Origin: Actinomycetota bacterium
GTDB taxonomy: Bacteria > Actinomycetota > CADDZG01 > JAHWKV01 > JAOPZY01
Direction: 5' to 3'
Length of the DNA stretch: 63,792 nucleotides
NCBI GenBank assembly: GCA_025963875.1
Contig: JAOPZY010000033.1
Span: forward strand, 1-63,792
Positions 17,846-21,810 of this stretch are shown piece after piece. The notes beneath the pieces were generated by a model, which was not told the origin of the DNA, did not search any database, and was given only the letters and a program-made list of their open reading frames with translations. The stretch's first letter is position 1. The number at the start of each line of letters is the position of its first letter. The position numbers and the translations under genes were made by a program.

Positions 17846-19642
17846 TCAGCGGTTGTATCCCTTCACGACCATCTGGTTCTGGTCGCTGAGCCCGGCGCTG
17901 TTGCGCCCCTTCGTGGGGCACGTACAGCTCCACCAGAACAGGTCCCAGGTCCTCGGGGCCGCCGACGGTTCGTAGTAGACGACGTAGTAGGTGGCGCCGG
18001 GTGTGACGGCGACATCGCCGATGTCGGCTGCGCTGGTGCCGTAGTTCACGACCGGGGCGGCCACGTCGGCAAGCTGGCCGTTGCAGGCGACATCCGAGGA
18101 CCCCGGCGTCCCGATCCCGCTGCAGACCCGGATGTGGGCCGTGACACCCGGCACCGACGATCCCGGTTGATAGTTCCCGCTCCCCCAGGTGACGCCCACG
18201 TAGGTCAGCGTATTGGACCGCGCCGTGAACGACTGGAAGCCGTAGGGGGACTGTCCCCAGTAGGGCGCGCCCGGGGCCATCCGGTCGTAGCTGACCACCG
18301 CGGTCCTGTTGGGCGGTGGAGGGGGCGGCGGGGTGCTGCTCCGGGACGGAGGGGGCGGCATGGGCGGCAGCGGTGTGGGGTTCGGGGGGCTCGGTTGCGG
18401 GGTGGGGCTCGCCGTCGGTGGCCGGTGGGAGGCACTGGCCGTGGGCCGGGCGGCCGAGGGCGCGGTGGCCGAGGGCGCGGGCGCGCCGGTGACCGTGATC
18501 GTCGCGGACGAGGAGAGCGTGCCGACCACCGCCCGCACGGTCGCTGTCCCCGGGCCCAGGGCACGGACCGTGCCGGACGTGACCGCCGCGATGTCGGGCC
18601 TCGACGACGTCCAGGCCGCACCGAGGGCAGCGGCAGGCGCCGGCGTCCCGTCGTTCATGGTCCCCGACAGCGCCAGGTCCTGCGAGGCCCCGGCGGCGAT
18701 CACGACGCTGCCAGGGCTGACCTCGAGCCCGCTCAGCTGCCTGACGGCGAGGTTCGTGCGGGCCAGGTAGGCGGTCTCCGCCTTCACCTGGTCGGCGACG
18801 AGGCGGCCCAGTCGGCCCGCCGACGGTCCCGAGGCAGGGACGTTCGCCTCGTAGGACACAGTCCCGCTCTGGCCGGGGCCCAGGTCGGGGAACGTGAACC
18901 GGAGGACGGGGTCGTTCTCGAGCACCTGGGGGCCGGGGGGCTGCAGGTCGTGCAGGGCGCTGGCCGAACGCGCCACCGAGGTGGGGATCACCTCGTTGTA
19001 GACGACGGTCTGCGTGCTCGACCCGGCGTTCGTGAGCGTGACATGGCCGGACAAGGTGGCTCCCTCGAGCCTCCAGGTTCGGCTGGCAGCCACGGTGCCG
19101 CCCACGATGGAGAGAGGAAACGTCGCCGTGGTCGGGGGAACGGACCGCGTGAGCGCTATCGCCACCACCAACCCGGCGACCGCCACCGCTGCGGCGAGCA
19201 GCACCACAAGGACGAGGCGCTGCCTGCGGGAACGAGCGCTGCCTTCTGGGGCGGCACCGACCCCCCGGCCGGGATCGGTTCGGGAACCGGGCCGGCCTCG
19301 AGCAAGGAGGGTCGCTCGTTGCGGCTCCGGCACCTGCGGCTCCGGCGGCCGGTCGAGGCGCGGCAGGGCCGGCAGGCCCTTGAGGCCGGCTGCCACGGAC
19401 CCGAGTGCCCTCGCCGCGCCCGCGGCGCCGGGCCGGTCGCCCGGCGCACGGGCGATCATGGCGGCGAACACCTCCCACAGGCGGGCCGGAAACCCGGGGA
19501 CCGGGCCGGGCACCCTCTCCCGCGCGGCCAGCAGGACGGCCACCGGGTCCACGCCGGTCGCGAACGGTGTCGTGCCCGTCACCAGCTCGTAGAGCATGAT
19601 CCCGGTGCTGTAGACATCGGCGGCGGCCGTCGCATGCTCGCG
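17846..19642 (-). pseudogene. C-terminal fragment of a receptor Ser/Thr protein kinase (subdomains IX-XI, TM helix, Big_2-like Ig domain, Pro-rich linker, Cys-containing C-domain)
   Basis: Reading down from 19642: RREHATAAADVYSTGIMLYELVTGTTPF..., then LVLVVLLAAAVAVAGLVVAIAL. No kinase N-lobe upstream on this strand. The first ATG (19597) is inside the conserved MLYEL motif. Confidence 0.8.
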
Positions 19643-19675
19643 ACGGCCTGTCAGCCCACCTTTTGGCTCAAACTG

Positions 19676-19701
19676 GTTGACCCGGACTGTTGACCCAGAC
19701 T
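19676..19701. repeat. Tandem 13-bp direct repeat
   Basis: GTTGACCCGGACT GTTGACCCAGACT (12/13 identical), about 35 bp inside the left end of the inverted segment. Confidence 0.7.
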
Positions 19702-19744
19702 GACTGCCGCCTGGCTGTCCGGCCGGCCCGCCTCCTTATGTTGC

Positions 19745-20335
19745 CTATGGTGCGGAGGCCTCCGCAGACTGCAGCGTCCGCAGCTCCATCCGTCCCTTGA
19801 GCTGGGCAAGGTAGCGACCCCGCGTCGGCCCGATGCTGCCGACGGGCATCCCGGTCAGCGCCGAGATCTCCTCGTAGCTGGGCGGCGGGTCGGCGAAGAG
19901 CAGCCGCAGGAGCACCTGCGCCTTCTCGGGCAGGTCGGAGAACGCCTCCCACAGCTCGCCGTCCCGCTCCAGGATGAGGACCCGGCTTTCGGGGGCCACG
20001 GCCGGATCGGCGTCGGGGACCTCGGCAAGGAAGATGTCGTCGCTCGGGACCGCCCGCTGGTTGTGACGGATCAGCCGAAGGCACTCCCGCCCTGCGGTCG
20101 TCGCCAGCCAGGCCCCGGTACGCTCGGGCTCCCGAACCTTGTCGATGTGCTCGGCCAGGCGCAGCCATGTGGTCTGGCTGACGTCGGCGGCGTCGGCCGC
20201 GCTCATGCGGTAGCCCCTGATCACCGACCACACCAGACCCGCGAAGTGGTCGACCAGTCCGGACCATGCCCCCTCGTCACCTCCGGCCGCTGCTGCGACC
20301 AGTGCCGCCACCCGTTTCGCTTCGTCGCTTTCCAT
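19745..20335 (-). CDS. ECF-type sigma-70 family RNA polymerase sigma factor
   Basis: 196 aa. Region 2 (LVWSVIRGYRMSAADAADVSQTTWLRL) and region 4 (SYEEISALTGMPVGSIGPTRGRYL). Divergent from the kinase N-terminal fragment. Confidence 0.85.
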   Translation of the reverse strand: MESDEAKRVAALVAAAAGGDEGAWSGLVDHFAGLVWSVIRGYRMSAADAADVSQTTWLRLAEHIDKVREPERTGAWLATTAGRECLRLIRHNQRAVPSDDIFLAEVPDADPAVAPESRVLILERDGELWEAFSDLPEKAQVLLRLLFADPPPSYEEISALTGMPVGSIGPTRGRYLAQLKGRMELRTLQSAEASAP

Positions 20336-20452
20336 GAGAAGAACATTTCAAATTGGACTGCGCGGCGCATCGGGGAAACGCCCTATTTCGCGAACCTGGC
20401 ACTACCTAGTTCGCCGCCCTGCCGGGTGCGGTAGGTCCTCTAAGCTGGGTGC

Positions 20453-21003
20453 ATGACCGAGCAGGTGCTGGGCGGTTTTGTCCTGCACGAGGTTGTTGGG
20501 TGGGGGGCGGTCGGGCAGGTGTACCGGGCGACGGACCCCCGGGGCGGTCAGGTGGCCGTCAAGGTCCTCCGCCCCGAGCTTGCGCACGACCGGGAAGTGG
20601 TGCAGCGGTTCCTGCGGGAGCGGAGCATCCTGGCCGGGATCGACCATCCCCGTGTGGTCAAGGTCCGGGACCTCATCGAGGAATCCGGGACGCTCGCCAT
20701 CGTGACCGACTTCGTCGCAGGCCCGAACCTCCGGGGGTACCTCGCCGGGGCGACGCTGCCGCCGGCCGAGGCGGCGCGCCTGATCATCCAGGTTCTCGAC
20801 GGCCTCACCGCCGTCCACGCCGCGGGCGTGGTGCACCGGGACGTGAAGCCGGAAAACGTCCTCGTCGACACCACGGTGACCCCGTCGCAGGCGCGCCTCA
20901 GCGACTTCGGCATCGCCAGGCTCACCCGCGGTCCCTCCCTCACGCGCCTGACCGGGCTGATCGGCACGCCCGGGTACCTGGCTCCCGAGCTGAGCCAGCG
21001 CGA
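20453..21003 (+). pseudogene. N-terminal fragment of the same Ser/Thr kinase (subdomains I-VIII)
   Basis: GWGAVGQVY, VAVKVL, HRDVKPENVL, DFGIA, GTPGYLAPE. After ...ELSQRE (21003) the frame runs into non-kinase junk to 21469. Confidence 0.8.
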
Positions 21004-21121
21004 AAATTCCACCGCAGGCTCCGAGGCCGTGCAGGGCGCGTTTTGGGTGCCGAATTACTCCGTTCCCAACCAGCCTTCGGCCTTCTCGCGGCGCGAGGGA
21101 GCGGGCGGACGAGCCCCTGGC

Positions 21122-21166
21122 CGGAACTTAGGGCCCCAGCGCGCGCATGCGCGCGCTGGGCTCCTC
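21122..21166. repeat. Nested palindromic repeat, family A copy with a perfect 26-bp palindrome
   Basis: CGGAACTTAGGG-CCCAGCGCGCGCATGCGCGCGCTGGG (palindrome 21135-21160, all 13 pairs checked) -CTCCT. Shares GAACTTAGG and CAGCGCGCG..ATG..GCGCG with the copies at 50636 and 50738. Confidence 0.85.
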
Positions 21167-21255
21167 ACCTTTCTCCTCCCCTGGCTGGCGCGCGGCCCCG
21201 GCCCCCGCGAGGCTCCGGCTGGACAGCCGGGGCTGCGGCGGGTAAGAGTCACCGC

Positions 21256-21810
21256 ATGGGCAGACGTCGCAGGCGATGCATCACTCCGTTGGGCGCCATC
21301 GTGCGGGGCGCCGTGGCCGGGGCCGCCGGGACGGCCGCCATGGACACCGCCCAGTACGTGCAGTACCGCCTCGGCGGCGGTACCGAGCCGTTCGCGGCGT
21401 GGGAGACCTCGAAGAGTCTGGACAACTGGGAGTCGGCCCCCGCCCCCGCCAAGGTCGCCAAGCGGCTGATCGAAGGCCTCACGCAACGGGAGTTGAAGGC
21501 CGACAAGGCGCGGCTGGCCAACAACGCGACGCACTGGGCCACCGGGATCGGCTGGGGGGCCGCCTACGGCGTGCTCGCCGGGTCGCTGCCCGCACGCAAG
21601 GTCCGCTACGGCCTGCTCTGGGGCCCGGTCGTGTGGGCCTCGAGCTACGTGGTGCTGCCCGCCCTCGGCCTCTACAAGCCGATCTGGGAGTACGACGCCA
21701 CGACCCTCGCCAAGGACCTCGGCGTCCACCTGGTCTACGGACTCACCACCGCTACCGCCTTCCGGGTGCTCGCCGGCCCAGCAGGCAGTCCGGGTCAGGA
21801 CGCCCACTGA
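21256..21810 (+). CDS. Hypothetical membrane protein (184 aa)
   Basis: ATG 21256 within ORF 20449..21810. Several hydrophobic segments (WATGIGWGAAYGVLAG, LLWGPVVWASSYVVLPAL). Confidence 0.55.
   Translation: MGRRRRRCITPLGAIVRGAVAGAAGTAAMDTAQYVQYRLGGGTEPFAAWETSKSLDNWESAPAPAKVAKRLIEGLTQRELKADKARLANNATHWATGIGWGAAYGVLAGSLPARKVRYGLLWGPVVWASSYVVLPALGLYKPIWEYDATTLAKDLGVHLVYGLTTATAFRVLAGPAGSPGQDAH

Follow-up and report, generated by a model that had tools for sequence, protein, structure and literature searches.

The stretch of DNA analysed here, which we refer to as the window, comprises 63,792 nt (positions 1 to 63,792 of contig JAOPZY010000033.1 in assembly GCA_025963875.1 of an Actinomycetota bacterium, an uncultured soil organism). 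It contains a receptor Ser/Thr kinase gene that is split into two oppositely oriented fragments, with the gene for an extracytoplasmic function (ECF) sigma factor between them and a DUF1440-like gene to their right. Several of the boundaries given below draw on a comparison with L005, a contig of assembly GCA_034667365.1 that carries the intact kinase P0130. In order along the window, the features are:

17846..19642, minus strand: C-terminal fragment of the kinase (C-fragment), codons 185–780 and the stop codon, identified by translation, by collinearity with residues 185–780 of P0130 and by the Pfam domain Big_2
19638..19642: left 5-bp microhomology, TCGCG, the crossover site; the BLAST segments of L005 overlap by exactly these 5 nt
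19643..20998: inverted segment, 1,356 bp between the two pentamers; its re-inversion yields a 780-aa open reading frame (ORF) and makes the window collinear with L005
19643..19744: spacer downstream of the sigma gene, ancestrally adjoining 20999 onward and part of a hypervariable sigma–DUF1440 spacer in a 12-locus alignment
19745..20335, minus strand: ECF sigma gene, intact, 196 aa, matching PF04542 and TIGR02937, flipped along with the N-terminal kinase fragment
20336..20452: divergent intergenic region between sigma and kinase genes, inside the inverted segment, presumed to hold their promoters
20453..21003, plus strand: N-terminal fragment of the kinase (N-fragment), codons 1–184, Hanks subdomains I–VIII, with a Pkinase match over residues 11–186
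20999..21003: right 5-bp microhomology, CGCGA, located by re-inversion and by the comparison with L005
21004..21469, plus strand: read-through tail of the N-fragment ORF, 154 junk codons that cross the spacer and overlap the start of the DUF1440-like gene in another frame
21256..21810, plus strand: gene for a DUF1440-like membrane protein, with a Pfam DUF1440 match below the curated cut-off

The N-fragment encodes a protein that begins with MTEQ and ends in GTPGYLAPELSQRE (last residues APELSQRE), so that the kinase domain as assembled is cut after subdomain VIII. On the minus strand, the frame that reads downward from 19642 gives REHATAAADVYSTGIMLYELVTGTTPF followed by a transmembrane (TM) helix and a large exodomain down to 17846; this C-fragment contains the end of the C-lobe, the TM helix, the Big_2 exodomain, a Pro-rich linker and a C-terminal domain. 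It has no start codon at the break, and the first and only canonical start in its frame is the ATG at 19597, which lies within the MLYEL motif. One of the two pentamers falls in kinase codons 183–184 and the other in the sigma–DUF1440 spacer, and the segment between them carries the spacer downstream of sigma, the sigma gene, the divergent intergenic region, kinase codons 1–182 and the first base of codon 183. Sigma gene and kinase N-fragment therefore both retain their own upstream DNA after the inversion, and the DUF1440-like gene, which ancestrally follows sigma immediately and in the same orientation, is now downstream of the kinase N-fragment. A scan of the region for sigma-70 promoters found none, and there is one weak terminator-like site at 21028–21040. 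The read-through tail had zero protein matches in a database of 5.8 billion sequences clustered at 90% identity, in a search aimed at counting inverted contigs. The split kinase, the divergent sigma gene, the 154 junk codons, the ATG within MLYEL and the pentamers had been described in a first-pass annotation of the window, and ORFs and translations bear out each of them.

Re-inverting 19643–20998 (or, equivalently, 19638–21003), with the pentamer counted once, produces an uninterrupted ORF of 780 aa. The first-pass annotation had proposed a restored kinase of this length, and this holds for 19643–20998; re-inversion of 19643–21003, the interval it had named, duplicates the pentamer and is out of frame. 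The restored protein scores 161 bits against the Pfam Pkinase model compared with 127 bits for the N-fragment ORF, and it contains Pkinase at residues 11–211 (to 254 with the PK_Tyr_Ser-Thr model), a hydrophobic helix at approximately 330–352 and Big_2 at 489–566. The layout of a Hanks-type receptor Ser/Thr kinase, with a full Pkinase domain, a TM helix and an extracellular region, is found in the restored ORF only. A protein search and cluster look-up placed the C-fragment in a 90%-identity cluster that includes intact kinases of 770–780 aa; one of these, P0130 (MEA2534407.1) of a sister metagenome-assembled genome (MAG), is nearly identical to the restored ORF. A kinase paralogue with 44% identity, P0013, has no adjacent sigma gene, and pairing with a sigma factor is therefore not general for this kinase architecture.

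The inverted arrangement is present in three further contigs. L002 (GCA_025963855.1) is collinear with the window over both inverted junctions at 98.3% identity, L003 (Logan assembly of ERR1762333) contains the right inverted junction, and L004 (Logan assembly of SRR13312996) contains the left one and is 100% identical to the window; the three represent distinct haplotypes from different assemblies or runs. The re-inverted window, in turn, aligns collinearly with L005 over all 3,357 nt, both junctions included, whereas against the window as assembled L005 aligns in three pieces with an overlap of exactly 5 nt at each junction. These exact overlaps indicate a clean reciprocal inversion without gain or loss of sequence. 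L016/L017, L020, L022, L023, L031, and L035 likewise have the intact kinase junction, and a contig from a sister species, L026 (approximately 79–88% nucleotide identity), has the DUF1440-like gene and the sigma gene on the minus strand, a 790-aa kinase on the plus strand and then riboflavin genes. Alignment of orthologous loci, a check that the first-pass annotation had suggested, thus yields the intact order in several contigs and in the sister species, from which we conclude that the intact divergent pair is ancestral. Because the same junctions occur in three other independent assemblies, we reject an assembly artefact, which the first-pass annotation had left as an option: the split is a genuine inherited inversion allele. 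Scans of metagenome and genome contigs based on the sigma gene returned few loci and no species representative of the window's own lineage.

Two single-nucleotide polymorphisms (SNPs) within the flipped segment, 19745C and 20135A, are private to the inverted haplotypes (the window, L002, L003, and L004), and every intact haplotype has the other allele; 19745C changes the sigma stop codon from TAA to TAG. Six further derived SNPs in the C-fragment are common to the window and L002, giving a total of eight private SNPs; the G at 19934 is otherwise present only in L001, the closest of the non-inverted relatives. The shared private SNPs place the carriers in one clade, as a single origin predicts, in a test that rests on consensus contigs with signs of recombination. 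Within the flipped segment the inverted haplotypes differ from one another by up to approximately 1%, and the inversion is therefore not very recent; of the proposal that a recent microhomology-mediated inversion had knocked out the kinase, the knockout by such an inversion is supported and a very recent date is not. The C-fragment of L002 has lost one further nucleotide (window 18875; nt 1311 of the coding sequence [CDS]), which causes a frameshift. On small counts, private substitutions in the kinase are synonymous and nonsynonymous at 14:17 in inverted haplotypes versus 40:16 in intact ones (L005 and lineage 2; Fisher p = 0.021). The best reading of these sequence comparisons is that the inverted copies are under relaxed constraint and are decaying as a pseudogene. 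The first-pass annotation had named, as an outcome that would count against a knockout, relatives that share the split and in which purifying selection maintains each half as a gene of its own; the split is indeed shared by relatives, but selection on the two halves is relaxed rather than purifying.

Two contigs from different Joint Genome Institute (JGI) samples, L006 and L035, display the same mosaic, in which an intact junction connects a window-like lineage-1 N-terminal part (99–99.9% identity) with a C-terminal part of lineage 2. The switch of lineage lies at kinase CDS nt ~440–500, which is 50–110 nt before the junction; L006 resembles the window only over CDS nt 1 to ~440 and, from ~nt 500 onward, hardly differs from lineage 2 (L016). 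L006 was considered as a revertant and ruled out, since the lineage switch precedes the junction and the same mosaic recurs in L035. Both contigs represent either a recombinant haplotype or a recurrent strain-chimeric assembly.

Among 200,000 random inversions simulated in this sequence, breakpoint microhomology of at least 5 bp arose with P = 0.010, and the 5-bp microhomology exceeds chance. Homology does not extend past the 5-bp core: the score of an anchored flank alignment was equalled by 47% of the other TCGCG/CGCGA pairs in the window. An extended inverted homology that had been spotted by eye (TCGCG-NN-GGC-(N3)-TCAGC) was dropped, as it did no better than 47% of the control pairs. A search for long inverted repeats flanking the segment found none. 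The crossover in the spacer lies at a palindromic TCGCGA, and the site on the kinase side reads GCGCGA. At the left inverted junction, 19626–19649, there is a perfect hairpin with a 9-bp stem (GGCCGTCGC ... GCGACGGCC; fold z-score −2.7), which may be due to chance (approximately 5% by a rough estimate) or may hint at local template switching. Three contigs from different assemblies (L001, L015, and L019) all terminate within 20393–20413 of the sigma–kinase intergenic region, and the end of L019 coincides exactly with a second TCGCGA palindrome (20388–20393), which may mark more strain heterogeneity or another breakpoint.

Inversion is one of several ways in which the kinase has been lost. We surveyed 19.1 kb of kinase sequence, together with 22.7 kb of sigma, DUF1440, and ribD sequence on the same contigs, and found four kinase lesions besides the inversion, of which two are frameshifts, one is a nonsense codon and one is a group of large internal deletions. 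One frameshift is that of L002. In L016:584-2895 and L017:972-3271, which are from two JGI samples and belong to lineage 2, the gene order is intact, and a 1-nt deletion at CDS nt 281 splits the kinase into ORFs of 109 aa and ~645 aa. L030, otherwise collinear, has an in-frame TAG in place of CAG at kinase codon 484, within the exodomain (NLAVR*LSGLE). In L014:1604-2470 (lineage 3, single contig), kinase CDS nt 200–435 and 497–1864 are deleted so that only a remnant is left; the sigma, DUF1440, and ribD genes of this contig are undamaged. The 22.7 kb surveyed for these three genes showed no net frameshift or stop, and there was no sigma lesion in the 12.2 kb surveyed for that gene. The sigma protein is identical on L001–L004 and nearly invariant across lineages that differ by 5–6% in DNA. 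With lesions confined to the kinase and sigma intact, the kinase has been lost repeatedly and sigma has been kept: in this species cluster at least five independent lesions disable the kinase, and its partner sigma is retained. Cluster members annotated as a 150-aa 'hypothetical protein' (P0121 type) were examined as a possible widespread kinase deletion and set aside as a gene-caller artefact, the kinase frame of L029 being open throughout.

Taken with the clade structure, these data make it very probable, in our judgement, that the locus results from a one-time microhomology-mediated inversion of 1,356 bp, which is heritable and segregates as a decaying loss-of-function allele of the kinase. 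A single event of illegitimate recombination, by template switching or end joining, would have occurred at the 5-bp inverted microhomology TCGCG/CGCGA and split the kinase just past the APE motif. The N-fragment keeps its upstream region and is fused to the junk codons; lacking subdomains IX–XI, it should be inactive. The C-fragment, with the rest of the C-lobe, the TM helix and the exodomain, has lost its start codon and presumed promoter, and read-through from the sigma gene is the most that could transcribe it. Sigma keeps its upstream region, is uncoupled from DUF1440 and now points at the kinase C-fragment and ribD, and the inverted allele coexists with intact alleles in natural populations. 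Judged from the truncated domain and the altered architecture, the split probably inactivates the kinase. As in other microhomology inversions, there are reciprocal junctions and a 5-bp repeat, there is no insertion sequence (IS), long inverted repeat or recombinase, and the gene subsequently decays; unlike in others, the event is seen in uncultured populations across several metagenomes, the same gene carries four further lesions and one breakpoint lies in a hypervariable spacer.

A number of points weigh against this explanation. The evidence on orientation consists of consensus contigs assembled from metagenomes or MAGs, which may mix strains. If the mosaics L006 and L035 are real, they imply recombination around the locus and weaken clade arguments based on SNPs, and L002 resembles L005 over the C-fragment stretch 19237–19430. 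Both the contrast in substitutions and the lesion census depend on small counts (p ~0.02 each), and the loss of kinase activity is deduced from the truncation of its domain. The 9-mer GGCCGTCGC adjoins both ancestral breakpoints as a direct repeat, which is the reason why a hairpin is present at the left junction, and L023 and L031 lack 87 nt up to a point only 2 nt away from the breakpoint in the spacer. Some local fragility or the action of an enzyme is conceivable.

The instability of the spacer bears on the best-surviving rival explanation, in which a mobile element caused the inversion, either by intramolecular transposition or end-cleavage by the IS present in this spacer in other strains or through double-strand breaks at TCGCGA repaired by non-homologous end joining. 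In the 12-locus alignment the sigma–DUF1440 spacer (window 19643–19744 and 21004–21255 in ancestral order) has at least six structural alleles of ~50–360 nt. It is short in lineages 2 and 3 (~50–75 nt), it is ~300 nt longer in lineage 1, where the additional sequence lies between 12-bp direct repeats GGCYGGACAGCC, and L023 and L031–L034 contain nested deletions. In L022 the spacer is interrupted by an IS-like insertion of at least 1.5 kb (L022:1552-3087) at a position equivalent to ~19688 of the window; the encoded protein of at least 390 aa has N-terminal HTH_28/HTH_32 domains and weak matches to IS481/IS630-like transposases. L001 retains a 55-nt scar that shares the left end of this insertion (CTCCCTAACCGCTCAATTGCCTAA) and a deletion down to window 21078. 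Although these features and the nearby end of the 87-nt deletion are in favor of an element, the inverted junctions contain neither an IS copy nor a terminal repeat, and a duplicative inversion, which would leave two copies, is unlikely for that reason. Moreover, the insertion site at 19688 is 45 nt from the breakpoint, and the kinase-side site is GCGCGA, not TCGCGA. We consider a mobile-element origin unlikely. Within the same spacer, window 21135–21160 forms a 26-nt perfect GC-rich palindrome CCCAGCGCGCGCATGCGCGCGCTGGG (fold z-score −3.2) that is kept in lineage-1 relatives and could be a terminator or a repetitive extragenic palindromic (REP)-like element.

A second rival is a programmed, reversible inverton that toggles the kinase and re-wires the co-transcription of sigma and DUF1440 by means of a site-specific recombinase encoded elsewhere, an idea close to the low-frequency reversible switch offered in the first-pass annotation. 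Invertons, including intragenic and partial-intergenic ones, are documented (Chanin et al., PMC10028968), and the locus resembles partial-intergenic invertons in that one end lies in a CDS and the other is intergenic, the protein is changed, and both orientations exist in nature, here at 98–99% identity. The palindromic crossover site in the spacer, with an independent deletion that ends 2 nt away, and the mosaics, with their window-like N-fragment and intact junction, also fit a switch. However, invertons flip clonally at repeats recognized by a recombinase, and here the repeat is only 5 bp with flanks no better than chance, compared with 11 positions in the one validated inverton whose repeat length is stated (PMC10028968). 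No recombinase gene is annotated on the related contigs L001, L014, L016, and L026 within ~5 kb of left flank and ~9 kb of right flank, where the annotated genes are rib, fmt, def, metK, amidase, hisG, infC, and one 525-aa ORF without a Pfam hit. Orientation follows phylogeny with its eight private SNPs, the inverted copies have a frameshift and a raised share of nonsynonymous changes, and the mosaics, which change lineage ahead of the junction, are not simple revertants.

The run SRR13312996 provides evidence on both sides. Logan assemblies use k = 31 and report contigs as connected in the assembly graph, and L004 ends exactly at 21003 and 19613, the nodes where such a graph must branch if the intact N|C kinase junction co-occurs in the run, which points to intact and inverted kinase junctions in one data set. 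At the same time, L004 has no break at 19638, where one is expected if the reciprocal intact sigma–DUF1440 junction were present on window-type flanks. Because L004 is unbroken there, we take the run to contain two strains, the inverted one and an intact one from another sub-lineage, rather than a single strain whose segment flips in place. Overall, a programmed inverton is very unlikely, and a true reversible switch with only a 5-bp core that toggles a receptor kinase and re-wires an ECF sigma operon is slightly less probable still. Were it true, the other kinase lesions would speak for strong fluctuating selection, for example from phages or predators that target the exodomain at the cell surface. 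The clade structure, the decay of inverted copies and the missing reciprocal junction in SRR13312996 argue against in-situ flipping, although reversal may still happen rarely. Finally, a misjoin in the window contig, with an intact kinase in the real genome, has in its favor that the contig is metagenome-assembled and that close intact alleles exist, but it can be dismissed almost entirely, as the junctions were recovered from different data by different assemblers in haplotypes that differ by 0.3–1.7%, a 5-bp repeat cannot mislead a de Bruijn assembler with k ≥ 31, and both reciprocal junctions are clean.

The sigma factor retained beside the inverted kinase belongs to the ECF class (group 4): it scores 66 bits against TIGR02937 (cut-off 42.9), matches PF04542 and consists of sigma2 and sigma4 only. 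Known kinase-linked ECF sigma factors are found in ECF43 (EcfP/PknT in Vibrio and EcfK/PknS in Xanthomonas) and in ECF59–62, ECF217, ECF267, and ECF283 (PMC8999054, PMC7826278). As in ECF43-type systems, the sigma factor is divergently paired with a transmembrane Hanks-type kinase; this pair is present in L005, L016/L017, and the sister species L026, and, as in kinase-linked ECF systems, no recognizable anti-sigma domain adjoins sigma. The canonical ECF motif is DAED, which ECF43 replaces with uncharged Ser/Thr residues that are phosphorylated (STTA in EcfP) (PMC8999054). Unlike these, the sigma2.2 region here, MSAADAADVSQTTW, reads DAADVSQTTW, and its DAAD keeps two acidic residues. The ECF43-type label of the first-pass annotation is thus correct in that pairing with a kinase is conserved in relatives, but membership in ECF43 is ruled out by the lack of the Ser/Thr-rich replacement. 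As for the conserved Thr/Ser of kinase-dependent ECFs that the same annotation had suggested looking for, Ser53, Thr55, and Thr56, just past DAAD, are conserved and are candidate phosphosites only. A more likely home for this sigma factor may be ECF283, the actinobacterial kinase-associated group (PMC7826278, PMC8999054), for which WP_056749340.1 is a reference sequence. Sigma homologs at 45% identity (L010 and L011, from Streptomyces and a Streptosporangiaceae MAG) have no neighboring kinase.

The order sigma–DUF1440 is kept in L001, L014, L015, L019, L023, L026, and L031. In every non-inverted relative, the sister species among them, the next gene after sigma on its strand is DUF1440/DUF6789-like, with a gap of only ~50–75 nt in some lineages, and its protein has no recognized anti-sigma domain. 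This makes DUF1440 a candidate co-transcribed partner or target of sigma.

The inversion is an ordinary type of event and not a new mechanism; its value is that of a clean case, documented in multiple data sets, in which a split gene in a MAG is a real segregating allele rather than a misassembly. More interesting than the inversion itself is the recurrent loss of the kinase, by several mechanisms, beside a conserved sigma factor. That sigma is strongly constrained in strains that have lost the kinase leaves its dependence on this kinase hypothetical, and the repeated loss suggests that the kinase is dispensable or costly in these soils, or that sigma is not strictly kinase-dependent. The locus thereby bears on the still little-tested idea that phosphorylation activates the sigma factors of kinase-linked ECF groups other than ECF43.

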